Shown here one piece after another: positions 20,396-32,902 of a stretch of DNA of 32,902 bases. This stretch comes from Methanomassiliicoccales archaeon (GTDB lineage Archaea; Thermoplasmatota; Thermoplasmata; Methanomassiliicoccales; JACIVX01), in the NCBI GenBank assembly GCA_028682925.1, contig JAJRAG010000045.1:1-32902 (forward strand). The letters run 5' to 3'. The stretch's first letter is position 1. Each line of letters opens with the position of its first letter. A program made the translations under genes and the position numbers. The notes beneath the pieces are model-generated. The model was not told where the DNA came from. It saw nothing but the letters and a program-made list of their open reading frames with translations, and did no database searches.

Positions 20396-21454
20396 TCAGT
20401 CTATGTCCATTGGGACCTTCTTGATGCTTTTCAGCATATCTCCATCCCAGACGTATCTGAGCCTCTTGCGGTTCTTCCACACTCCCTTCTGCAGGATGTA
20501 ACCGACCATTAGGCTAAGTCCGATCGACGCCTCGACGTACACGACGGCCTTCGTCGCGTTCCTGTTGATCTTGCCCCAAGACTGTGCCTCCTCAAAAGTG
20601 CAGCCGGAGAGGCCGCCCCAATAGGGAACATCGGTAGTGATCTGTATGGCGTAGTGGTGGCCGCCTTTGTCGTGGCCCAGAGTCTCGGCGATCACCTCGG
20701 TCTGCTGTATGTAGTTCTTCGGGACGCCGCCTCCGATGTATATGACACCGGTCTTGTCCGACTTAATCTTTATCTGGGCTATCTCCCAATTGTCCCGTAT
20801 CGGATCGATGCTCATGAATGGCTTGTTTGCCTTGCGCATCCTTACGTACATTCCCGTCAGCCCGATGCCGATGGATGAGTCGTTAAGAGCGGGGACGAAG
20901 ACCGGGACTCCGTACCTCCTTGCATTGTAAAGGATAGAGTCTTTGCCAGACTGTTGGCCCAGTATCTCCATGAACTCTCGACTCGAGTAGCCGCGTGGCT
21001 CGAGCCCTCCCGCAATGTCGCCGATGAAAGCGTCAGTCTCTCTGAATTTCTCCTCATCGACCAGCGTATCGTATATTCTGTCAAGGAAGAACTCCCTCAA
21101 CTTCAGATCGTCGATATTGGGGGAGCACTTGTAGTGACTGTACCCCCTCGACTGGTAGAAGTCCTGATATGGGATCGCACCGATCGACACGATTCCGTCG
21201 ACAATGCCATACCTTATCATGTCGACTATGATCTTCCTAAGCCCTGCAGCGACCAAAGGACCGGCAAGACCCAAAAGGATCGTCGGTCGGCTCGGGTCCT
21301 TCAGGGCGTTCTCGTACGCCATGGCACATGTGGCCAAGGCTCGACTCTGCACAGAGCTATCCTTATATGCTTCGACCAGATCCTCAACCGTCGAGATTCT
21401 GTCGAAGTCGATGTGCTTCACTTTCTCTTTCAACAAATCCTTTCTGCTGACCAT
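20396..21454 (-). CDS. dys: Deoxyhypusine synthase
   Basis: There is full-length resemblance to DHS, including LAGPLVAAGLR, IPALNDSSIG-type PALNDSSIGIGL and IYIGGGVPKNYIQQ. ATG 21454 (MVSRK) has GAGGGA 8 nt upstream. The track uses TTG 21472. Confidence 0.9.
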   Translation of the reverse strand: MVSRKDLLKEKVKHIDFDRISTVEDLVEAYKDSSVQSRALATCAMAYENALKDPSRPTILLGLAGPLVAAGLRKIIVDMIRYGIVDGIVSIGAIPYQDFYQSRGYSHYKCSPNIDDLKLREFFLDRIYDTLVDEEKFRETDAFIGDIAGGLEPRGYSSREFMEILGQQSGKDSILYNARRYGVPVFVPALNDSSIGIGLTGMYVRMRKANKPFMSIDPIRDNWEIAQIKIKSDKTGVIYIGGGVPKNYIQQTEVIAETLGHDKGGHHYAIQITTDVPYWGGLSGCTFEEAQSWGKINRNATKAVVYVEASIGLSLMVGYILQKGVWKNRKRLRYVWDGDMLKSIKKVPMDID

Positions 21455-21508
21455 TGAGAATCCCTCAGACAATTCGAATTCAGATGCCTCCGGTCCCCTC
21501 GAGATTCA

Positions 21509-21984: not shown

Positions 21985-21992
21985 TTAAAATA
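21985..21992 (+). promoter_or_regulatory. Candidate TATA box (TTAAAATA) upstream of the coiled-coil KaiC-like gene
   Basis: It lies about 60 nt upstream of GTG 22052, within a 370-nt AT-rich non-coding region. Confidence 0.3.
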
Positions 21993-22051
21993 TCAATATC
22001 AATCTAAACTTGGTCTAAGTCAACATTATTTCGGCCAGCAGGTGAAACTGA

Positions 22052-24004
22052 GTGCAGAAGAAATCGGAGGGAGACAACCTGGACTACCAGGGAACACTAG
22101 ATGGTTCCAAGGCATCTTCTGAAGAGACTGGTCCGATTGAAACGGACGATGTATCGCCAGAGAAGACGGACGAACTCAAGAGATGGTTGAGCGGAGAGGA
22201 TACCCTTCTTTCTTGGCTTAATGAAGGTCCGGAATCGGGACTGCTCGTCAATTCTGACCTCGAAATCGGAGGAAGTATAGAACCTTCGGAAGATCAGCTG
22301 GCTTTGAAAGAGAAGGTTGCAGACTATGAGGACGAGCTCACGCGATTGAGGAAAGAAATCAATGAGATGAGGGCAAAGGACGATATTGTCGGACCCGATG
22401 AATCGGTGACCGCGAGGAAGCTGCGAGAGCTGTCGAATGAGAATACAAAGCTACTGAAGGAGTTGGAGAGCGCACGGGAATTGAGGGAAGCGCTCAAGAA
22501 TCAGTTCGAGATCTCGATGAAGGACCTTCCCGGAGATAGGGTGTCAATCATTCAGAAGGAATTGGAGCTCAAGGAACTCGAGAAAGAGCTGACCTCCAGA
22601 GAAGCCATCGTGGCAGAAAAGGAATCGATGTTGAGGGACAAACCGATATCCACCGAAGACGGAATTGACCTCGAGGAGAGATTCCACGCTGAGCTCAGAG
22701 AAAAAGATCTAGAGTTCCAGCGCAGGGAGCAGGAGCTCTTGACGAAGATCGAGGGGCTTGAGCAAAACCTCAAACAGAAAGTGATGGATGACGAGCTTCT
22801 TGAGAACGAACTGAGAATCGCGCGGATGACTGGCCCCGACGCGCAGAAGGAGATACTGGAGAGAACAAAGAGTCTCGCGCTCAAGGAGAAGTCCATAATG
22901 CTGAAGGACGCGGAAATCGAGAAACTCAGGATAGAGAATCGGGAGAAGGATGATGAGCTTTCGAAGATCAAATCCGTCGTCTCATATAAAGAAGAAGAGA
23001 TCCTTCGAAGAGACGAGGATTTGTTCTACAGAGAGAAGGTACTGTCAGAGGAACGACGCAGATACGATGAGATGAAGAAGCAGCTCTCAGGCCTCGACGA
23101 GGTGGAACTCAAGAAGCGCCTCGAGGATCTGAAGATGGAAGTCCAAAGGAAGGAGGAGGAAATCCGAGCAAAGGAGAAGTACCTCAATTCGAAAATGGAA
23201 GAGCTGCGCCGGAGAGAACAAGGCATCATCGAGGACGAGATATCGGCGAGAGAACAAGACAGAGCACTTGAGGTGCAGCAGGCTAAGGTGAAGACCGGAA
23301 ACGACCGTTTGGACGACCTTCTGCTTGGAGGTATCCCGTTCGGATCGAACATTCTGGTTCATGGTCCGCCCTTCGTAGGAAAAGAAGTGATGATGAACCA
23401 GTTCATGGCAGAGGGCCTCAAGAAGGGGCTACCAGTATTGTGGGTCCTCACAGACAAGACTCCTCACGACATCCGAGAAGAAATGAACTATGTCCTGTCC
23501 GGATACGAAGAATATGAGAAGTTGGGTCTGGTGAAGTACATCGACTCATATTCCAGGAGCATGGGGGAGACCACTGACGATCCTTTTACCACCTACATCG
23601 ACGAACCGACCGACCATGACTCGATTATGGAAAACGTCGAGAAAATTGTAAAGCAATACAAAGAGAAGCACGAGCTCTACCGCCTCGCATTCCGATCCAT
23701 CTCGACCCTGATAGCCTACTCAGATCCAAACACGGCGTTCAGATTCTTGAGCCCATTCTGCGGCAGGAGGAAGAGGGACAAGGCAGTCGCACTCTTCACC
23801 GTGGAGAAGGGCGTGCATGGTGAGCAGGAAATCCAAATGCTTGGATCGATCATGGATGGAATGATCGATTTCAAGGTTGACCAGTTGAGAACGTTCTTCG
23901 CGGTCAGTGGCATCTCTGACGTGCAATCAAGAGCGTACATAAGGTACACTTCGAGCAAGCATGGCCTGACAATAGGCTCATTCGCCCTTGAGCACATTCG
24001 TTGA
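22052..24004 (+). CDS. Coiled-coil protein with a C-terminal KaiC/ArlH(FlaH)-like RecA-superfamily domain and degenerate Walker motifs
   Basis: The GTG start has AGGTGA 8 nt upstream. Residues about 85-415 are E/K/L/R-rich with heptad-like periodicity (LKELESARELREALKNQFE, KELELKELEKELTSREA and similar). The C-terminal 230 aa reads LDDLLLGGIPFGSNILVHGPPFVGKE...LWVLTD...YRLAFRSISTLI, which is the KaiC/RAD55/GvpD-family layout. No TM helix is present. Confidence 0.75.
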   Translation: MQKKSEGDNLDYQGTLDGSKASSEETGPIETDDVSPEKTDELKRWLSGEDTLLSWLNEGPESGLLVNSDLEIGGSIEPSEDQLALKEKVADYEDELTRLRKEINEMRAKDDIVGPDESVTARKLRELSNENTKLLKELESARELREALKNQFEISMKDLPGDRVSIIQKELELKELEKELTSREAIVAEKESMLRDKPISTEDGIDLEERFHAELREKDLEFQRREQELLTKIEGLEQNLKQKVMDDELLENELRIARMTGPDAQKEILERTKSLALKEKSIMLKDAEIEKLRIENREKDDELSKIKSVVSYKEEEILRRDEDLFYREKVLSEERRRYDEMKKQLSGLDEVELKKRLEDLKMEVQRKEEEIRAKEKYLNSKMEELRRREQGIIEDEISAREQDRALEVQQAKVKTGNDRLDDLLLGGIPFGSNILVHGPPFVGKEVMMNQFMAEGLKKGLPVLWVLTDKTPHDIREEMNYVLSGYEEYEKLGLVKYIDSYSRSMGETTDDPFTTYIDEPTDHDSIMENVEKIVKQYKEKHELYRLAFRSISTLIAYSDPNTAFRFLSPFCGRRKRDKAVALFTVEKGVHGEQEIQMLGSIMDGMIDFKVDQLRTFFAVSGISDVQSRAYIRYTSSKHGLTIGSFALEHIR

Positions 24005-24028: not shown

Positions 24029-24454
24029 TCAAGCAACTTCAACGCTTTCTCCAGGCCCTCTTACGTTCTTCTTTTGAATATTCACCCTTGGTAGCGGAAA
24101 GGGTGGAGGCAGCCTAATATCCCGAGAGACGAGCAAAGCTGTTGGGATACAGTTCGAGACAATCGAGTTGTGGACAAGGTTCGCTGCCTCATCGGGCATG
24201 GAGTTCTTCTTCGACCATTCGTCCACGAGAATCGAGACCTCGCCGCATAGCGTTATTTGGCCTTCAATCTTTATGTATCCCATTCCGACATAGTTAGCGG
24301 TGAACCTGAACTCGACCGAAGCGGTATCCTCCCCAACCTTCGAGATCTGGGTCACTGTACTGTTCTGATCGATTCTGACATTGGAGATCCGTTCACCAGA
24401 TTTTGAGAATCTCTTTGCCTCGATCGTGTGCGTCTCAAATCCCTTGACCTGCAT
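24029..24454 (-). CDS. Hypothetical protein (141 aa) with a SecB-like fold pattern
   Basis: ATG 24454 starts MQVKGFE, and an upstream TTG at 24466 is also possible. Four predicted beta strands are followed by a long helix and a C-terminal IPTALLVSRDIRLPPPFPLPRVNI. That tail parallels the SecB segment LFPYARE...RGxFPxLxLAPVNF. The resemblance was judged by eye only. Confidence 0.5.
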   Translation of the reverse strand: MQVKGFETHTIEAKRFSKSGERISNVRIDQNSTVTQISKVGEDTASVEFRFTANYVGMGYIKIEGQITLCGEVSILVDEWSKKNSMPDEAANLVHNSIVSNCIPTALLVSRDIRLPPPFPLPRVNIQKKNVRGPGESVEVA

Positions 24455-24545
24455 CCTCACGCCCAATGGGCCAATCGCTCATTTAGATAATAGACATTTC
24501 GACAGCGACTGAAGCATGAAAGGTTGATTTCATTGAACGTCGAGA

Positions 24546-24638
24546 TGCCGCGGGCCGGACTTGAACCAGCGACTTCAAGATATCCGCTCCCGTGCAGGGA
24601 ACTTCAGTCTTGCACTCTCCCAACTGAGTTACCGCGGC
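24546..24638 (-). tRNA. tRNA-Phe (anticodon GAA) with a 20-nt intron at the canonical 37/38 position and no encoded CCA
   Basis: The reverse complement reads GCCGCGG TA ACTC AGTTGGGA GAGT G CAAGA CTGAAG [TTCCCTGCACGGGAGCGGAT] A TCTTG AAGTC GCTGG TTCAAGT CCGGC CCGCGGC A. All four stems pair, with one G-U in the T stem. The discriminator is A. Confidence 0.85.
24582..24601 (-). other. tRNA intron (20 nt) with a relaxed bulge-helix-bulge
   Basis: The proposed fold has a central helix CTGA/GCGG with 3 of 4 pairs, flanked by the 3-nt bulges AG|T and AT|A. The inner helix is TCCC/GGGA with loop TGCAC. The splice sites fall symmetrically in the bulges. Confidence 0.6.
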
Positions 24639-24865: not shown

Positions 24866-24943
24866 GTTATATGTTGCTCATTTTCACCCGAAGGAACTGG
24901 GTCACTGGTGTAGCGTATGTTCGGTTCCCGTGAGGGACTACGG

Positions 24944-25852
24944 ATGAATAGATTGAGCAAGCGTCACTTTCTGAAGCGTGATAGGGAAGGAGTCGCTTCG
25001 ACAGTGGGCACGATAATGGCCTTGCTAGTATTCATGACATTTCTCTCGATGTTCACGAACTCGTACATTCCAGTATGGATGCAGGACAACGAAAGGGCAC
25101 ATATGAACCAGGCTATCAACCAGTTTGCAGACCTCAAGGGAAAGATAGACAGCCTTATTGTCACTGCCCAAGTGACTGGATCCAGCACGATTCACATGTA
25201 TTCACCGATAACGCTCGGTGCCCAAGGGATACCTGTCTTTGCCTCCCCGACGGCCGGGTTGTTGACCTACTCTCCTCAGGGAACGGGTGACTCAGGCATC
25301 TACGTTAAGTTCAACTACTCACTTGATGGGGTGAAGACCAGAGTGTCGGAATCGGGTGGCGGTATGGTGGAGCTGTATGCGCCGAATAGGTATTACGTCC
25401 AGCAGTGGGTCGGATATGAGAACGGCGCGATGATCGTAAAACAGCAAGACGGTCAAATCCTAAGGGCATGGCCGAGCATCCAGGTCGAGAAAATTGGGTC
25501 CTCGATAAATATCAGGTTCACTCAAATCGACTTTATTGGGACTAATGCTAGCGTTGGCGGTACCGGCACGGTCGGCCTGAATCTGAACCTGGTCTACATC
25601 GACTCCCAGACATATTCATTTGACAGCACTAGTGGAATGGATGTGAACATAACGTTCAGAACGAGATACTGGGACGCATGGCAGCAGTTCCTCGATGACA
25701 CGTGCTTGAAGGCCGGACTGACTTCTCCCACGAACTACGGAATAAAAATCCAGCAAGTGAATGACAATGTCGAGACCGTCACGCTTTGGATAAAGAATTC
25801 AGGAACGATGATCTACAATAGAGCGTTCATGGACGTATCGGTGCAGATCTGA
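24944..25852 (+). CDS. Class III (type IV prepilin-like) signal peptide protein of about 300 aa; putative pilin-like or filament-associated subunit
   Basis: The N-terminus MNRLSKRHFLKRDREG/VASTVGTIMALLVFMTFLSMF has a charged leader, a Gly at the likely cleavage site and a hydrophobic helix of about 20 aa. The rest is rich in beta strands and in S/T/G/N. ATG 24944 has GAGGGA upstream, and 24917 is an alternative start. Confidence 0.65.
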   Translation: MNRLSKRHFLKRDREGVASTVGTIMALLVFMTFLSMFTNSYIPVWMQDNERAHMNQAINQFADLKGKIDSLIVTAQVTGSSTIHMYSPITLGAQGIPVFASPTAGLLTYSPQGTGDSGIYVKFNYSLDGVKTRVSESGGGMVELYAPNRYYVQQWVGYENGAMIVKQQDGQILRAWPSIQVEKIGSSINIRFTQIDFIGTNASVGGTGTVGLNLNLVYIDSQTYSFDSTSGMDVNITFRTRYWDAWQQFLDDTCLKAGLTSPTNYGIKIQQVNDNVETVTLWIKNSGTMIYNRAFMDVSVQI

Positions 25853-25867
25853 TGATGAAGCGGTGTA

Positions 25868-27649
25868 ATGATGCAGGAAGCTGAAGCAGGGAAGATGACT
25901 GAAGGGGACCAGTCTAACGATGCAGATGAAGTCTCATCGAAAGCATTGGTCGATGATTTCCAGAGCGAATCCAAGGCCACCAACAGGCTTAGAGACTCCT
26001 ACTTGAAATTCCTTCGAAGGGTCGCGCCGAACAGGGCGTCCAGAGTCAGACTTCCTGTGGGGGAGATAGCTCAGAGAGTCGAGTGGTCAAAAGGGAGAGG
26101 TTCTCTCATCACTGAGATCCCGAAGATCGAGAATCCTTCCATCGAGGTCGCTGATATCTATCCCGTTGTGGAGCCTTACAGTTTTGTCCGCGTGACTTTC
26201 AACAAAGAAACGAGCGAATACATTCTCGAGATGATAGAGCCGGCGCTGACTGAGAAGGAGGAGAAGCTACTCAACCTGATAAAGGACACCATGAAGAGAA
26301 CACTTGGATATGAATGGGACAAACTCACACAGCTCGACAAGGGAGAGTATCTCACGGAGAGCGTCGAGAGCTATATCAAGAGCCGAGGGGTCAGGATTGA
26401 TCCTCTAGTACGGAAGAAGATAGGGTACTATATAGCCAGGGACTTTGTCGGATACGGTAAAGTCGACGCCCTCATAAGGGACGAGAACGTCGAGGACATC
26501 TCGTGCGATGGCGTCGGCATTCCTTTGTTCGTCTTCCACAGGAAGTATGAGAGCATCAAAACCAGTCTATCATTCAATGATGAAGATGCGCTCAACTCCT
26601 ACGTGGTTTCTCTTGGACAGAGATGCGGCAAGCAAATATCCGTGTCGAACCCGATCCTGGATGGTACCACTCCCGAAGGTCACCGTGTCCAAGCGACGTA
26701 TTCGAGGGAAGTGACGACCAGAGGATCGACATTCACCATAAGAAGGTTCAAGGAGAAGCCCTTCACTCCAGTGGAACTAGTCAAGTATGGCACCGCAAGC
26801 CCGGAGATGATCGCGTACTTCTGGCTTGGCGTCGAGAACGGGGAGTCCGCAATCATTGCTGGTGGGACCGCCAGCGGCAAGACGGCCACGCTGAACTCGA
26901 TCGCGTTGTTCATACCTCCGGGGGCGAAAATCGTCACTATGGAAGACACGAGAGAGATCAACCTTCCGCACGATAACTGGATACCAGGAGCGACAAGGAC
27001 CGGGGTCGGGGAGCGTGACGCGAGCGGTAGAATGGCTGGGGAAATCGATATGTACGATCTTGTCAGGGCCTCTCTAAGACAGCGTCCCAACTACATCATC
27101 GTCGGCGAGGTCAGAGGCAAAGAGACATACATCATGTTCCAGGCGATGGCCACCGGTCACACGACATACTCCACAATGCACGCAGACTCAGTGAAGTCGA
27201 TGGTCAACAGGCTCGAGAACCCTCCGATCAACTGCCCACGGATCCTGCTCACGGCGTTGAGAAACGTTATCATCCAGACGCACGCGAGAGTCGGGACCGA
27301 TCTTGTGAGGAGAATCAAGCAGGTAATCGAGATTGTCGGTTTCGAACCTGAGACCAACGAGCTGATCACTAACACCGTCTACGATTGGGACCAGGCCACT
27401 GACAGGTTCATCTACAAAGGTCACAGCTTCCTATTTGACAAGATTATGGAGATGAAAAGCCTCACGCACGATGAAATGATGGAGGAGTTCAACCGACGGA
27501 CGGACATTATCAAGTACATGGTACAGAAGGACATCACCGATCACAGGAAGATATGGGGCCTCATTAACAGCTATTATAAGGATCAGGAGAAAACGATAAA
27601 GAGGATACGTAGGGAGATGGAGGAGGGGGTGACACAAGTTGGCGCCTGA
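25868..27649 (+). CDS. FlaI/PilB-type secretion ATPase (GspE/VirB11 superfamily), paralog 1
   Basis: Walker A is GGTASGKTATLNS. The Asp/Walker B region is IVTMEDTREINLPHDNWI. GEVRGKE is present, and the His box is AMATGHTTYSTMHA. The N-terminal domain YPVVEPYSFVRVTFNKETSEYILEMIEPALTEKEEKLL is typical of archaeal FlaI-like ATPases. Confidence 0.9.
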   Translation: MMQEAEAGKMTEGDQSNDADEVSSKALVDDFQSESKATNRLRDSYLKFLRRVAPNRASRVRLPVGEIAQRVEWSKGRGSLITEIPKIENPSIEVADIYPVVEPYSFVRVTFNKETSEYILEMIEPALTEKEEKLLNLIKDTMKRTLGYEWDKLTQLDKGEYLTESVESYIKSRGVRIDPLVRKKIGYYIARDFVGYGKVDALIRDENVEDISCDGVGIPLFVFHRKYESIKTSLSFNDEDALNSYVVSLGQRCGKQISVSNPILDGTTPEGHRVQATYSREVTTRGSTFTIRRFKEKPFTPVELVKYGTASPEMIAYFWLGVENGESAIIAGGTASGKTATLNSIALFIPPGAKIVTMEDTREINLPHDNWIPGATRTGVGERDASGRMAGEIDMYDLVRASLRQRPNYIIVGEVRGKETYIMFQAMATGHTTYSTMHADSVKSMVNRLENPPINCPRILLTALRNVIIQTHARVGTDLVRRIKQVIEIVGFEPETNELITNTVYDWDQATDRFIYKGHSFLFDKIMEMKSLTHDEMMEEFNRRTDIIKYMVQKDITDHRKIWGLINSYYKDQEKTIKRIRREMEEGVTQVGA

Positions 27650-28679
27650 AGTCTCTGACATATTTGCGAGATTGGAGGCCTCGAAGAAATCGTATACGAA
27701 GACCAAGGGAGCGGAGGAGAGGCCCGATGTTGTAGGTCCTCATGTCGTGAAGCTTCCTCAGGGTGCAGTTCCAGATTACATCAAGCTGACGAAGTATCAG
27801 GAGTTCTGTTGGAGGACCCTCGAGTCGTTCGTGAAACTGAAGGCCAAACCTAACCCCAAACTCGAACAGAACCTCCTCCAGGCCCACATGAAGATGCGCA
27901 CCGAGGAGTATGTGTCTTATGTCTGGATGACGACCATACTGGCTGGTGCCATTGCGGCGGTCCTTGCCGTCCTCTTGGGCGGCATAATCCTGAGCTTCCT
28001 GCAAGTCGACGCCGCACTCGTCTTGGTAGGACTCGTGCTGATGGTGATCATACCCCCTGTGCTAGCCTACATGGTCCTTGTTTCCCGACCTGCTTCGGTG
28101 GCGAAGCGCAGAGGAAGAGACATTGACAAGAGAATCGGGGCCGCAATGAGCTTCATTTCTGCCATGGCTTCCGCGGATGTCAACGTCGATGTCATATTCA
28201 AAGAACTTTCAAGACAGAAGATATATGGTGAAATCAGAGACGAGGCAGAGTGGATCACGAGGGACACGGAGCTTCTCGGCATCGACATATTGACGGCCAT
28301 TAACAATGCGGCTCAGAGGACGCCATCCACTAGGTTCCAGGAATTCTTGCAGGGTGTGGTCACGACCTCCACTTCTGGCGGTCAGCTCAAGCCCTATTTC
28401 CTGCAGAAAGCGGAGCAGTTCGAAAAGGAGGGGAAGCTCGAGATGCGTTCTCAGCTCGAGACACTTGGCCTGATGGCCGAGTCTTTCGTCACGGTCGTCG
28501 TCGCATTCCCTCTGTTCCTTGTCGTGATCATGGCGATAATGGCAATCGTCCCAGGTGGAGGGGGATCATCAGACATGACCATTATCCTACTCTATGCTGT
28601 GGTCGGACTTATGATTCCAATCTCCCAGTTCGGATTCATCTTCTTCATCTGGAACATTACTAAGGAGGCCAGCCTATGA
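27639..28679 (+). CDS. FlaJ/TadC-like platform membrane protein with a single T2SSF-like domain, half 1
   Basis: The TTG start has GGAGGGGGTGA 6 nt upstream and overlaps the ATPase-1 stop by 11 nt. The cytoplasmic domain reads MSFISAMASADVNVDVIFKELSRQKIYGEIRDEAEWITRDTELLGIDILTAINNAAQRTPS...GGQLKPYF and is flanked by TM helices. The exact start is uncertain. Confidence 0.8.
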   Translation: MAPEVSDIFARLEASKKSYTKTKGAEERPDVVGPHVVKLPQGAVPDYIKLTKYQEFCWRTLESFVKLKAKPNPKLEQNLLQAHMKMRTEEYVSYVWMTTILAGAIAAVLAVLLGGIILSFLQVDAALVLVGLVLMVIIPPVLAYMVLVSRPASVAKRRGRDIDKRIGAAMSFISAMASADVNVDVIFKELSRQKIYGEIRDEAEWITRDTELLGIDILTAINNAAQRTPSTRFQEFLQGVVTTSTSGGQLKPYFLQKAEQFEKEGKLEMRSQLETLGLMAESFVTVVVAFPLFLVVIMAIMAIVPGGGGSSDMTIILLYAVVGLMIPISQFGFIFFIWNITKEASL

Positions 28680-28691
28680 GGGGTGATTTGG

Positions 28692-29636
28692 ATGGCTAGA
28701 AAGGGGAAAGGGAAGAAGAAGAAAGAAGACAAGAAGGGGCGAATCCTAGACATAAGCCAGATCAGGACTAGAAAGAGCGACTACGGCAGGACCATCCTTT
28801 TGGTGGGCTTGGTCATCGCGATTATATTGTTCTTCATGGGATTCCTGGAAGCCATTGGCGGACTGAAGACTGGTCTCAAATGGATAGACTTCGTAGCCTT
28901 CGGCCTGATGGCAATCAGTGGACCATACGGCTTCTACATGTCCTATCGTCACAAGAAGATAAAGGAGATAGAGTCTAGACTGCCGGACTTCCTCAGAGAT
29001 GTGGCGGAGGCTGGACGATTCGGAATGACATTGGCCGAAGCGGTCAAAGTCTCATCCAGAGGCAGATATGGCAAGCTGACGCCTGAGATAAAGAGGATGG
29101 CTGCTCAGATTGACTGGGGGGTGCCAGCAGCCGACGCGATGCGTCTGTTTACCGAAAGAGTGAACACTCCCCTTGTGAACAGAATGATGTCGATCATCAT
29201 CAAAGCGAACGACGCCGGCGGAAGCGTAGCAGATGTCCTTACAATGGTCGCCCACGACGCAAGGGAGGCGATGCTCAACGAGAACGACAGGAAGATCTCG
29301 ATGTCGACCTACATGGTGGTCACCTACATCGCGTTCATGGTGTTCATCGCGACGATATTCATCCTGAACTCGACTTTCCTGCCCAAGATGGCGGAAGCAG
29401 GCCAACAAGTCGCAAAGGGCGCCGAAGCGGCTGGAATAACGAACATGCCAGCGACGATACAGACCGAAATCATTCCTCAGGTGCAATTGATATTCATTAT
29501 CGCGGTGGTTATACACGCTTTCGGCGATGGCATCCTTGCTGGTGTACTTCAGGACGGTAGAATCACGAACGGACTACGGCACAGCTTCATCATGTTGGTG
29601 ATCGGCTTCATCGGAACAAGAGTAATAGGAGGATGA
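28692..29636 (+). CDS. FlaJ/TadB-like platform membrane protein with a single T2SSF-like domain, half 2
   Basis: The ATG has GAGGGGTGAT 5 nt upstream. The domain reads LPDFLRDVAEAGRFGMTLAEAVK...EIKRMAAQIDWGVPAADAMRLFTERVNTPLVNRMMSIIIKANDAGGSVADVL and is flanked by TM helices. Confidence 0.8.
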   Translation: MARKGKGKKKKEDKKGRILDISQIRTRKSDYGRTILLVGLVIAIILFFMGFLEAIGGLKTGLKWIDFVAFGLMAISGPYGFYMSYRHKKIKEIESRLPDFLRDVAEAGRFGMTLAEAVKVSSRGRYGKLTPEIKRMAAQIDWGVPAADAMRLFTERVNTPLVNRMMSIIIKANDAGGSVADVLTMVAHDAREAMLNENDRKISMSTYMVVTYIAFMVFIATIFILNSTFLPKMAEAGQQVAKGAEAAGITNMPATIQTEIIPQVQLIFIIAVVIHAFGDGILAGVLQDGRITNGLRHSFIMLVIGFIGTRVIGG

Positions 29637-29642
29637 TAGAGA

Positions 29643-31334
29643 ATGACAGACGCCGAGAGAATGGAAGAACCTCTTCCTGAGGAGAGAGTTGAGAAAGACA
29701 TCAAGGAGAAGAGGTCAGGCGGCGGATTGTCAAATAGATACCTTTCATTCCTGCTCAAATTGAAGAGCAAGCCGATGAAGATCATGATCCCAACAGAGGT
29801 CAGCAAAGGACCGCTTGACGTCATAACAGAGATTCCCAAGATCTCGGACGCCGGAGTCGATGAGGTAGAGATCTCGAGAATCACTGACCCTTACTCATTC
29901 GTAAGAATAAAGTACGACAATGTCGGGGGAGAGTACCTCTATGAAGTCATCGAGCCGAACCTGTCCGGTGACGAGCGCAACCTTCTAGAGCTGCTGAAAG
30001 ACGCCCTCATTATGACATTGAACCTGGCAGAGATCGAGTCCAAAGCGCAGAAGGAGGAGATCCTGAACAAGGCAACGGACGCGCTCATGAAGACGTTCGG
30101 TGTGACGCTCCACCCGATCTCAAAGGACAGGATCATGTACTTCATTCGGAGAGACTTCATTGGATATGGGGCAATCGATGTCATGATGAACGACCCGAAC
30201 GTTGAGGACTGCTCTTGCGATGGGGTCGATATTCCACTCTACATATACCATAGGAAATACGGATCGATCAGGTCAAACATCAGATTCGTAAAGGAGGTCG
30301 AGCTTGATGCGTTCGTCGTCTGGCTAGCACAGAAGTGCGGAAAGCACATATCGGTCGCTGACCCGCTGCTTGACGCTACCATACCAGACGGATCGAGGCT
30401 CAATGCGACCCTTGGTAAGTACGTCACCAAGAGGGGGTCGTCCTTCACGATAAGACGCTTCAAGGAGAACCCGTTCACTCCTATCGATCTATTGAAGTTC
30501 AGAACGATGAGCACTGACATGATGGCCTACCTTTGGATCGCCACTGAGTACGGAAGCTCGATGCTCGTCTGCGGAGGTACGGCAAGCGGCAAGACGACGA
30601 CCCTGAACGCTGTCCTCCTTTTCATACCACCACAAATGAAGATAGTCAGCATTGAGGACACCAGGGAGCTCAACCTACCCCACGAGAACTGGATCCCCTC
30701 GCTCACAAGGGAGGGTTTCGGAGGGAGGGGGAGCAACAAGACCGGGACCATAGACATGTTCGAGTTGCTGACGACCGCTCTGAGACAGAGACCACAATAC
30801 CTGATGGTCGGAGAGGTCAGAGGCAAGGAGGCATATGTCGTCTTCCAGGCGATGGCGACCGGCAAGACCGCCTATTCGACCTTCCATGCAGAGGACGTTC
30901 AAGCGATGGTGCATAGGATGGAGAACGACCCGATCAATCTTCCCAGAGCACTGATGACAGCGTTGGACATCGTGCTTCTACAAGCGCAGGTGAAGGTCGG
31001 CACCAAAATGACAAGGAGGGTCAAGTCCCTCACAGAGATCGTCGGAATGGATCCGGAGACGGGGGAGCTTATCACGAATGCGGTTCACACTTGGAACCCC
31101 GCAGACGACACTTTCAACTTCAGCGGGCATTCGTATGTGTTCGAGAAGGTTAGAACGATAAGGAACTGGTCACCCAGGGAGATGGAACGCGAGGTCAAGC
31201 GGAGGGTCGACATCCTAGATTACATGAAGAAGATTGGTGTCGACAACTACAAACAGGTCGCGAGCATAATCTCAGCCTACTACAAGGACCCTGAGAAGGT
31301 CATCAAAGAGATCAGGGAGAAATTGACTGAGTAG
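29643..31334 (+). CDS. FlaI/PilB-type secretion ATPase, paralog 2 (His-box variant)
   Basis: GGAGGATGA lies upstream of the start. Walker A is GGTASGKTTTLNA, followed by IVSIEDTRELNLPHENWI and GEVRGKE. The His box reads AMATGKTAYSTFHA, with Lys where paralog 1 has His. The protein is collinear with paralog 1 over its full length, and identity by eye is roughly 50-60% in the C-terminal domain. Confidence 0.9.
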   Translation: MTDAERMEEPLPEERVEKDIKEKRSGGGLSNRYLSFLLKLKSKPMKIMIPTEVSKGPLDVITEIPKISDAGVDEVEISRITDPYSFVRIKYDNVGGEYLYEVIEPNLSGDERNLLELLKDALIMTLNLAEIESKAQKEEILNKATDALMKTFGVTLHPISKDRIMYFIRRDFIGYGAIDVMMNDPNVEDCSCDGVDIPLYIYHRKYGSIRSNIRFVKEVELDAFVVWLAQKCGKHISVADPLLDATIPDGSRLNATLGKYVTKRGSSFTIRRFKENPFTPIDLLKFRTMSTDMMAYLWIATEYGSSMLVCGGTASGKTTTLNAVLLFIPPQMKIVSIEDTRELNLPHENWIPSLTREGFGGRGSNKTGTIDMFELLTTALRQRPQYLMVGEVRGKEAYVVFQAMATGKTAYSTFHAEDVQAMVHRMENDPINLPRALMTALDIVLLQAQVKVGTKMTRRVKSLTEIVGMDPETGELITNAVHTWNPADDTFNFSGHSYVFEKVRTIRNWSPREMEREVKRRVDILDYMKKIGVDNYKQVASIISAYYKDPEKVIKEIREKLTE

Positions 31335-31547: not shown

Positions 31548-32902
31548 CTAGGGTGTTTCCTCACCCTCATTCGATCCTGCTTCCGGAGGTTCTGTTTGCT
31601 CGGGAGGTTTCTCTTCCGCAGCTGTCTCCTCAGGTTTCTTCAAAACCTTCTTCTCGACCGGTCTCTTTACGATCCTCCTCAGCCGTGGCTTGCCCTCCTC
31701 TGCGGCCTCTTCCTTCAGGGTCTCCTGCATCGTCTCGAAGACGGTACCGCACTTGTGGCAGACCTTTGAGCCTCTGGGGTTGAGCGTACCGCAGACAGGA
31801 CAAGCGAAAGCGCCGAGCTTCCGGCGTTCCTCCTCTTGGGAAAGCCACTTCTCGAAGGTGATGTAGCTGGGCTGCTTCTTCCACCAGTCTGAGAACTTCG
31901 CCTCGGAGAACTTCTTCCCGAGGACTTCCTTGGCCTGCTCCCTGTATCCGTCCAAGAACTGCTGGTACTGCTCCCTCATCTTCTTCATGTACTCGTCCTC
32001 TTCTTCCGGAATCGGCCCAGTTACGAATTTCGCACCGCACTCCGGACACTCAGTTGAGTTCGCAGGTATCCAAGCCGCGCATTCGCTGCACTTCGCAGTG
32101 CCCGTCTCGAACTGCACGCCGCACTTCGGGCAGCGCTTCGAGGCCTCGGGTATGAGGGAACCGCACTCGCCGCACTCAACCATCTTCCCAAGTCCGTACT
32201 TGTACAAGTATAGCGAGAAGAATATGATGATCGCGGCGACTATGGCGATAATGATCGCATAGATCCACCAATCGGTCGGAGTCTCCACAAATCCTCTGCT
32301 CACGGTTATGTCCTGGGTGTGGCTGAACGTCTGATCCCCAATCTGGACTGTGACTCGAATCTTGTAGTCTCCTTCCTCTCCCAGAGGGATGTACTTGGAG
32401 GACTGGAAACTACCAGATGCTGTGGTCAGCGCAGTCGAGTTGGCACCGATTACACTACCGGACGCGCTCACGAGACTGATCCACGCAGATCTGCCTATGA
32501 GTGGGTCGCCACTAATCTCATTCGTCACAGTGCCACCAACCACGATGTCTGTGCCGGCCTTGTAGTCGAACACACCGCCCAGATCGATGACGATGAGGGG
32601 GTTTGGCACGTTGACACGGAACTGCATTGTAATCTCATTGTTGGAGTAGTTTCCTTCTCCTGCCCCAATATCTCCGAGCAGACTCGCTCTCATCGTCAGG
32701 TTGAACCATCCGAAGCTTGTGGTATTGACCACCCAGGTCAGGTTCGCAGTCACCGTAGCATTGGCGGCAATGTCGGTCGTGACCGTTCCAATGTTCCTGA
32801 TCATGCCTTCGGAGTTCGTGATGTCAAAAGCCACAACGACATCCATCGCGGACGTGTACCCATCGTTCTTGACCTGAGCTCCTATGACAATGGATTCACC
32901 GA
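31548..32902 (-). CDS. Surface protein (partial, with its 5' end beyond the window): Ig/CARDB-like ectodomains, one TM helix and a cytoplasmic tail with three zinc ribbons
   Basis: The reading frame stays open from 32846 to the window edge (GESIVIGAQVKNDGYTSAMDVVVAFDITN...). The N-terminal part is beta-rich with N-x-S/T sequons. The TM helix is WWIYAIIIAIVAAIIIFFSLYLY. It is followed by CGEC..CPKC, CSEC..CPEC and CPVC..CHKC ribbons and a K/E-rich tail. Confidence 0.7.
   Translation of the reverse strand, partial: GESIVIGAQVKNDGYTSAMDVVVAFDITNSEGMIRNIGTVTTDIAANATVTANLTWVVNTTSFGWFNLTMRASLLGDIGAGEGNYSNNEITMQFRVNVPNPLIVIDLGGVFDYKAGTDIVVGGTVTNEISGDPLIGRSAWISLVSASGSVIGANSTALTTASGSFQSSKYIPLGEEGDYKIRVTVQIGDQTFSHTQDITVSRGFVETPTDWWIYAIIIAIVAAIIIFFSLYLYKYGLGKMVECGECGSLIPEASKRCPKCGVQFETGTAKCSECAAWIPANSTECPECGAKFVTGPIPEEEDEYMKKMREQYQQFLDGYREQAKEVLGKKFSEAKFSDWWKKQPSYITFEKWLSQEEERRKLGAFACPVCGTLNPRGSKVCHKCGTVFETMQETLKEEAAEEGKPRLRRIVKRPVEKKVLKKPEETAAEEKPPEQTEPPEAGSNEGEETP

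Follow-up and report, generated by a model that had tools for sequence, protein, structure and literature searches.

A helical-stalk protein with a degenerate KaiC-fold domain encoded beside a CdiP-type pilus operon in Methanomassiliicoccales

ArlH (FlaH), the KaiC-like protein of the archaellum, uses its Walker A Lys and Walker B Asp to bind Mg-ATP, shows no detectable hydrolysis, and is thought to form a ring beneath the motor; mutants of either residue bind less nucleotide and less ArlI and make no archaella (PMC5019145). The coiled-coil-containing cytoplasmic scaffolds ArlX and ArlC/D/E surround the FlaI-type ATPase, ArlX as a large ring about ArlI, and bind ArlH. For archaeal type IV filament motors besides the archaellum, we know of no defined cytoplasmic accessory proteins. 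KaiC-family genes (arCOG01171, 01174, 01175) adjoin VirB11/TadC-type genes, and their products have been proposed as regulators of type IV pili (T4P); in the same census, the Methanomassiliicoccus genomes of that time proved to lack a secretion ATPase (PMC4858521, Makarova, Koonin and Albers 2016), so the locus described here lies outside it. This locus is on contig JAJRAG010000045.1 of a Methanomassiliicoccales archaeon (assembly GCA_028682925.1; 1.37 Mb, 223 contigs, 79% complete), of which we analyzed positions 1 to 32,902; this whole stretch of 32,902 nucleotides is called the window below. Its central gene (22052..24004, + strand; an uninterrupted frame of 650 codons) encodes a 650-aa protein that joins a helical stalk to a degenerate KaiC-like (DUF7504) domain, and it stands upstream of a pilus operon.

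The window operon has the layout of the CdiP machinery of Cuniculiplasma divulgatum, CdiPE1-Fa-Fb-E2 (ATPase, split platform, ATPase), and the paper on that machinery names no KaiC-like, coiled-coil or other cytoplasmic partner (PMC12448462). The CdiP machinery, with its two ATPases and split platform, is explicitly unexplained. A conserved, seemingly dead KaiC-fold protein that tracks with the operon inside a single order is a concrete candidate partner. Our best explanation of the whole, to which we give a probability of about 0.5, is that the protein is a non-catalytic KaiC-fold hub on a helical stalk and that the adjacent pilus machine is its likeliest partner. The parts of this explanation differ in strength: that the protein is a non-catalytic scaffold is very probable, and a partnership with the adjacent two-ATPase, split-platform CdiP-type machine is a tentative proposal.

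The protein is soluble. Its acidic N-terminus leads into a helical stalk of about 335 residues, and a KaiC-fold domain makes up the C-terminal part. We placed the KaiC-fold (DUF7504) domain at aa 415-650 (23294..24001, + strand) with Pfam, AlphaFold2 (AF2) and Foldseek. The Pfam KaiC family (PF06745) matches aa 413-612 with E 1.4e-20 and 74.1 bits (cut-off 26.6), DUF7504 (PF24336) matches with E 2.4e-14 and 54.6 bits (cut-off 27) over profile positions 1-178 of 179, and DUF7090 also matches the C-terminal domain (E 8.8e-10). The AF2 model of this domain, which was built on a 134-row alignment of representative relatives, has a predicted local distance difference test (pLDDT) score of 96.1 and a predicted template-modeling (pTM) score of 0.92; the full-length model is poor in the same domain (mean pLDDT 64). 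With Foldseek against the PDB, PH0284 (2dr3) and KaiC rank highest, PH0284 with template-modeling (TM) scores of 0.84/0.87, a root-mean-square deviation of 2.6 Å and E 3e-16, and KaiC CI with a TM score of ~0.75; E is about 1e-16 for KaiC as well. The sequence matches run the same way, with E ~1e-12 for PH0284 and KaiC (PH0284 5e-12) and a far weaker E ~1e-3 for FlaH/ArlH structures. The NCBIfam ArlH models also fall short of their cut-offs (NF052589, 28.3-33.7 bits vs 215; NF004723, 51.7-54.2 bits vs 194). An earlier note on this DNA, made from the letters alone, had proposed an ArlH-like domain of KaiC-like layout; the layout and fold are borne out, and membership in ArlH in the strict sense is not, PH0284 and KaiC being closer in both sequence and structure.

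We found that both catalytic motifs of this domain are replaced. The degenerate Walker A, GPPFVGKE (aa 438-445; 23363..23386, + strand), aligns with G-x4-G-K-T in HMMER alignments to KaiC (8zn5), PH0284 (2dr3) and RecA, which keeps K444 and puts E445 (codon 23384..23386, + strand) at the Ser/Thr site. At Walker B, LAFRSIS (part of YRLAFRSIST) aligns with VVIDSIT of KaiC and places Arg548 (codon 23693..23695, + strand) at the Asp site; the same stretch faces VVVDSVT in the PH0284 match. In addition, LTDKTP aligns with TFEESP of KaiC CI (8zn5), so that D468-K469 (23453..23458, + strand) occupies the site of the two catalytic Glu. Hence, the domain departs from the G-x4-G-K-[ST] form of Walker A in the KaiC/RecA-like fold (Glu for Thr) and from the hhhhD form of Walker B with a catalytic Glu (Arg at the Asp site, Asp-Lys at the Glu-Glu site). 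The Glu and Arg codons had both been named in the earlier note, and their coordinates were exact. Among 24 orthologues of the order with 48-93% identity, K444, E445, D468, K469 and R548 are conserved, K444, E445, D468 and R548 are invariant, and the C-terminal domain is the best conserved part of the protein. The odd catalytic-site residues are under purifying selection.

The stalk covers aa 80-414 (22289..23293, + strand), as judged from AF2 helices, composition and heptads. AF2 places helices at aa 80-108, 117-157, 161-196, 203-258 and 261-414, with four short breaks, and the composition is 49% charged residues, 13% Leu and 3% Gly plus Pro. A heptad test, a crude, home-made statistic of a/d positions compared with shuffles, was significant only at about aa 78-140 and 323-392; we therefore term the stalk helical and coiled-coil-prone. 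What had been called a heptad-rich coiled coil is thus a long helical stalk with significant heptads in two stretches only. No Pfam family matched the stalk. The claim that the protein has no transmembrane (TM) helix proved correct, since the highest Kyte-Doolittle mean over 19 residues is 1.08, a value found within the P-loop strand of the KaiC-like domain. The stalk sequence is conserved over the order from aa 205 on; aa 60-200 vary in length and are partly deleted in relatives.

The acidic region at aa 1-79 is probably disordered, as the AF2 model suggests (pLDDT <50 at aa 1-35 and 58-79). It holds the motif WLSGEDTLLSWL (aa 45-56; 22184..22219, + strand), of which W45 and W55 are invariant across the family in the orthologue alignment. 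Relatives from other Thermoplasmatota carry one or two copies of a W-L-x-G-[ED]...W-L motif. In seven relatives (P0126, P0127, P0131, P0132, P0133, P0135 and P0139), the acidic form W-L-x-G-[ED]-x(5-9)-W-L stands once or twice between a zinc ribbon/HhH_5 module and the stalk, and the window protein keeps one copy. W-L-x-G-E...W-L in other proteins of the organism's genome gave five matches, with 4-8 in shuffles, which is the level of chance.

Co-occurrence of gene and operon was counted in a sample of 151 Methanomassiliicoccales genomes, with the window's own genome omitted from the co-occurrence counts. The KaiC-like gene is single-copy and present in 79 of the 151. Gene and operon occur together in 78 genomes, both are missing from 66, the operon occurs alone in six, and the gene occurs alone in none. 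By coded family, nearly all genomes of f1-f6 carry the gene, and it is found in 2 of 64 genomes of f7 and in none of the four of genus g8. Strong paired FlaI-type ATPase matches fall in gene-bearing genomes; gene-less f7 genomes have a FlaI-type match of only 1e-21 to 1e-26 or none, and g8 has none. Among the six operon-only genomes, three are explained by contig ends (G031, G052, G108), two are true local losses (G033, G044) and one was not examined (G080).

The placement of the gene is also constant within the order. In 12 mapped loci from six coded families, it shares its strand with ATPase 1, which follows 1.9-4 kb downstream, and coordinates in about 50 further genomes agree with this placement. 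The gene order in the 12 loci is colinear, with single genes missing in a few: AIRS-like, DUF531, deoxyhypusine-synthase-like (dhys-like), the KaiC-like gene and orf145 (opposite strand), followed by prepilin-like, ATPase 1, platform a, platform b, ATPase 2 and a zinc-ribbon membrane protein. Genomes lacking the module keep the synteny Lhr-FtsJ-AIRS-DUF531, which breaks right after DUF531, where the segment with gene and operon would start. For a clean deletion of the segment in these genomes, the left breakpoint (after DUF531) is the only one fixed.

Outside the order, we found members of the family at T4P genes in two other coded families, f13 and f42. There, at least 10 genomes have just one T4P-type ATPase and, 4-5 kb downstream of it, a gene for a stand-alone DUF7504 protein of ~240 aa. 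These proteins share GKE, L-T-D-K, G-M-H-x-E-x-E-x-Q and M-D-G with the window domain at 36-43% identity, and they retain the Walker B Asp. In the one f13/f42 locus mapped in detail (L157), the order is ATPase, two platform genes, a KaiC::small-GTPase fusion and then the DUF7504 gene. This placement in a T4P operon is independent support for an association with pili. In coded family f10, the DUF7504 protein and the ATPase occur together in 12 genomes, both are absent from eight, and the ATPase is found alone in one. Across the phylum sample, 104 of the 105 domain-bearing genomes have a T4P-type ATPase, and the base rate is itself high (237 of 301).

As a side observation, the fusion upstream of the DUF7504 gene, a KaiC-like domain joined to a small Ras/Arf-like GTPase (382-393 aa), recurs directly upstream in a second locus; the loci come from two further families of Thermoplasmatota (L157:13201-14382, - strand; L156:5357-6505, + strand). 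In the 6.5 kb of upstream sequence at hand, L156 holds no ATPase.

Several findings weigh against the pilus partnership. The two genomes with true local losses retain the operon and have lost the KaiC-like gene from the locus. The gene forms a transcription unit of its own; orf145 is convergent with it, and a tRNA gene also intervenes before the operon. The interval of 0.9 kb reported in the earlier note is thus occupied, by orf145 (24029..24466) and the tRNA gene (24546..24638). The housekeeping neighbors, AIRS-like, DUF531 and dhys-like, are as syntenic as the operon; hence, adjacency within one order is weak evidence and may be inherited gene order. Few independent losses underlie the co-absence, and the lineages concerned may have shed many genes. 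Sister orders carry an orthologous operon and an orthologous stalk protein (ATPase 2, 59-65% identity; C-terminal domain, 45-56%, with alignments extending back to aa 204-290), and no sister order examined shows linkage of the two: the operon lies at 4.5-9.6 kb in both G252 and G191 and the gene at 331 kb and 624 kb, respectively, they are 75 kb apart in G168, and they are on separate contigs in several other genomes. In f10, the CdiP-like operon and a DUF7504 member of ~310 aa are likewise unlinked. No T4P gene was found within 6-12 kb at 19 of 20 loci outside the order, and the neighbors at these loci change from order to order: LSM and Kae1-Bud32 genes flank the gene in f9, four loci have a GvpD-like or STAND/TPR protein upstream, and two have PKD or CARDB surface proteins downstream. 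Moreover, large families of the phylum carry the ATPase without a DUF7504 domain, and N-terminal zinc ribbons and helix-hairpin-helix domains in relatives point to other partners.

The strongest rival draws on these same findings. It holds that the protein has no pilus role and is a general cytoplasmic scaffold of Thermoplasmatota, for example a nucleic-acid- or nucleoid-associated protein or one for cell organization, its adjacency to the operon being inherited gene order. The unlinked sister orders, the zinc ribbon and HhH_5 in relatives, the f9 gene between the LSM and Kae1-Bud32 genes, the equally syntenic housekeeping genes of the window and the two genomes that have the operon without the gene all fit this account. 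However, it leaves unexplained why, within the order, the gene never occurs without the operon, why both are missing together in three lineages (f7, g8 and part of f10) and why a T4P-type operon includes a stand-alone member in two other families; the near-universal ATPase of domain-bearing genomes also speaks against it, though less so given the base rate. We consider this rival possible but somewhat doubtful. The motor-associated scaffold or regulator proposed in the earlier note thus gains from the co-occurrence in the order and loses from the separate transcription unit, the syntenic housekeeping genes and the missing linkage in sister orders.

In G033 and G044, which belong to one genus (loci L052 and L053), orf145 and the whole operon are kept, and ~620 bp separate orf145 from the dhys-like gene. 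In this gap, tblastn detected no remnant of the KaiC-like gene, and beside ATPase 2 there was no match to the zinc-ribbon membrane protein.

The replaced residues recur far beyond the order. A search of 1.8 billion representatives with the C-terminal domain returned 2031 clusters with E <= 1e-3, of which 148 had E <= 1e-30, and residues were counted over 134 representative clusters with the full domain. The P-loop glycines and Lys are kept in 129, 132 and 126 of the 134. The residue that follows the Lys is acidic in 120 (E in 109, D in 11) and S/T in five. At the Walker B site, R and L occur in 34 clusters each, E in 12, F in nine and D in only seven, and hydrophobic residues (L, F, I, M, V) fill the site in 58 in all. 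Where KaiC has its Glu pair, the first residue is D in 71 clusters and the second K or R in 94. Since the replacements recur over the 134 clusters, they are a signature of the whole family and not a local accident: an acidic residue comes after G-x4-G-K, and most of the aligned sequences have lost the Walker B Asp. The window protein fits this signature (E after Lys, R at Walker B), and the long-stalk subfamily is characterized by Arg at Walker B. Pili aside, the DUF7504 signature is a clean case of a P-loop domain turned into a structural module, over more than 100 sequence clusters.

The Walker A Ser/Thr and Walker B Asp of canonical P-loop NTPases contact one and the same Mg2+, so Glu445 and Arg548 should lie opposite each other. 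Since the Mg2+ ligands are replaced, we infer that the domain cannot hydrolyze ATP in the manner of KaiC, and, as far as the sequence tells, it probably does not bind Mg-ATP as ArlH does. A Glu445-Arg548 salt bridge may fill the Mg2+ site and lock the domain in one state. As a principle for the whole family, such a bridge was rejected, because the commonest pairs at the two sites are E/L (34) and E/R (31), and E/E is also seen.

A second rival would keep the domain as a working nucleotide switch, a KaiC-like signaling hub in which G-x4-G-K binds ATP or another phosphate ligand and the acidic residue takes the metal or permits metal-free binding. The retention of the P-loop glycines and Lys in 126-132 of the 134 clusters, the strong selection on the acidic residue itself, the Walker B Asp of the stand-alone members and the precedent of ArlH, which is KaiC-like and binds ATP without detectable hydrolysis (PMC5019145), are in its favor. 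However, a D-to-N change at Walker B alone strongly cuts nucleotide binding by ArlH (PMC5019145), and here the site has Arg, with Asp-Lys in place of the Glu pair in addition; a hydrophobic Walker B in 58 of the 134 clusters likewise fits a disused site. We therefore regard a nucleotide switch as improbable. A pseudogene or chance open reading frame is excluded by the invariant residues and the single-copy conservation over 21 genera.

For the preferred reading, a non-catalytic hub beside the pilus machine, we propose the following mechanism. The domain probably oligomerizes, like PH0284 and KaiC, into a ring or other fixed assembly, which would serve as a docking hub. The stalk would be a spacer or dimerization element, and the N-terminal Trp-Leu motif would be a partner-binding peptide. 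At a CdiP-type machine, the protein would play a role analogous to that of ArlH plus ArlX/ArlCDE at the archaellum base, without nucleotide control. In its most specific form, this mechanism would make the DUF7504 stalk protein the missing cytoplasmic ring or stator of the Thermoplasmatota CdiP-type two-ATPase pilus machine, that is, a permanently locked equivalent of ArlH that works without nucleotide and has an ArlX-like stalk built in, with the Glu-Arg pair replacing Mg-ATP at the subunit interface; this form we consider unlikely.

The likenesses to known proteins are thus partial. PH0284, the best structural match, is a hexameric archaeal protein of the RecA superfamily and consists of a single KaiC-type domain of ~240 residues with a canonical GGPGTGKT loop, VVVDSVT and no stalk, whereas the window protein has Glu and Arg at these sites and ~410 extra residues. 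With ArlH, it shares the KaiC-like fold, a (predicted) lack of hydrolysis and a gene near a FlaI-type ATPase. However, in ArlH the Walker A Lys-Thr/Ser and Walker B Asp are intact, ATP binding is required for the interaction with ArlI and for assembly of the archaellum, and the ~230-aa protein is encoded inside the arl operon together with archaellins, arlI and arlJ, whereas the window gene is a separate, convergent unit beside a CdiP-type pilus operon. By this comparison, the window protein cannot work as ArlH does and may hold an analogous place. The coiled-coil-containing scaffolds are alike in general design, but ArlX is anchored by an N-terminal TM helix and its coiled coil is only short (residues 87-127), whereas the window protein is TM-less, and no sequence relation to ArlX or ArlC/D/E was found with Pfam. 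The families arCOG01171, 01174 and 01175 are described as typically auto-phosphorylating/de-phosphorylating ATPases, a point of difference from the window domain.

The family is catalogued but uncharacterized. Database records call its members DUF7504 family protein, RAD55 family ATPase, ATPase domain-containing protein or KaiC/GvpD/RAD55 family RecA-like ATPase. Such names stand on hundreds of Thermoplasmatota records, and the named members come from Thermoplasmata/Thermoplasmatota metagenome-assembled genomes. A literature search on DUF7504 found no paper. Hence, the view that the architecture was undescribed does not hold at the level of databases, where it is listed as DUF7504/RAD55-type; what is new is a catalytically dead, stalk-fused form at a T4P locus, on a theme already known, and the uncharacterized DUF7504 gains a first testable description. 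The DUF7504 domain is present in 105 of the 301 sampled genomes of the phylum, and ESM Atlas neighbors are all archaeal KaiC/DUF7504 clusters, which are most common in Thermoplasmatota. A search with the 650-aa protein gave 671 homologues, and the named ones are all from Methanomassiliicoccales. We found no second GKE-type paralogue in the organism's own genome.

Relatives range from 240 to 1257 aa, and the domain ends at the C-terminus or within 10 residues of it in all but one of the full-domain matches listed. Their N-termini differ: a zinc ribbon and HhH_5 followed by W-L motif(s) and stalk, a multi-TM domain or, in one case, HD plus a STAND NTPase. This last relative (P0174, 1257 aa) has a DUF7504-type domain behind HD-CE and an nSTAND1 NTPase and is reminiscent of STAND defense/signaling proteins.

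The gene starts with GTG, and orthologues of 93% identity have Met at the matching position. By sequence reading, a ribosome-binding site, AGGTGA (22040..22045, + strand), lies 6 nt before the start, and an A/T-rich, TATA-like TTAAAATAT (~21985..21993), ~60 bases before it, may act as a promoter. Short metatranscriptome contigs from three wetland/sediment libraries fall on the gene, one identical to it (22335..22485) and three at 3-9% divergence. These are a weak hint of transcription, as DNA carry-over could also explain them.

The pilus operon of the window (24917..31334, + strand), assigned with Pfam and NCBIfam and colinear in all mapped relatives, comprises a prepilin-like protein (24917..25852), ATPase 1 (25868..27649), platform a (27639..28679), platform b (28683..29636) and ATPase 2 (29643..31334), all on the + strand. 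Pfam and NCBIfam scans of the window found no archaellin family.

Between the KaiC-like gene and the operon, orf145 (24029..24466, - strand; 145 aa, no Pfam match) is convergent with the former. It is found at the same spot in 13 of the 14 mapped relatives in which the position is covered, with 43-90% identity. A homologue with 50% identity lies elsewhere in G006, a genome without the KaiC-like gene and the pilus operon; hence, orf145 is not strictly tied to the module. The tRNA gene that follows (24546..24638, - strand) was called by ARAGORN with an odd anticodon of four bases (gaag) and fits an intron-bearing tRNA-Phe. Contigs of RNA library X2 end at 24581 and 24602, and their overhangs continue past the 20-nt stretch 24582..24601, which is consistent with splicing; the splice point comes from these overhangs and is not among the joints listed by the program.

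On the far side of the KaiC-like gene, the dhys-like gene (20396..21472, - strand) was assigned by profile scores, which are near-equal for deoxyhypusine synthase and 1,9-bis(guanidino)-5-aza-nonane synthase and under the cut-off for both. It is conserved at 69-89% in most module-bearing relatives, and three have a version at 37-41% in its place; homologues in module-less genomes reach only 27-40%. The gene may be a paralogue that travels with the segment.

Downstream of the operon, Pfam zinc-ribbon families and the translation point to a membrane protein with an ectodomain, one TM helix and a cytoplasmic zinc-ribbon tail (31548..32846, - strand), which adjoins ATPase 2 in 12 of the 15 mapped relatives that reach beyond ATPase 2. 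In another family, an 1843-aa CARDB-repeat protein with C-terminal double zinc ribbons (L146:7432-12963, + strand) is encoded directly 3' of a stalk-protein homologue, and its general design matches that of the zinc-ribbon membrane protein of the window.

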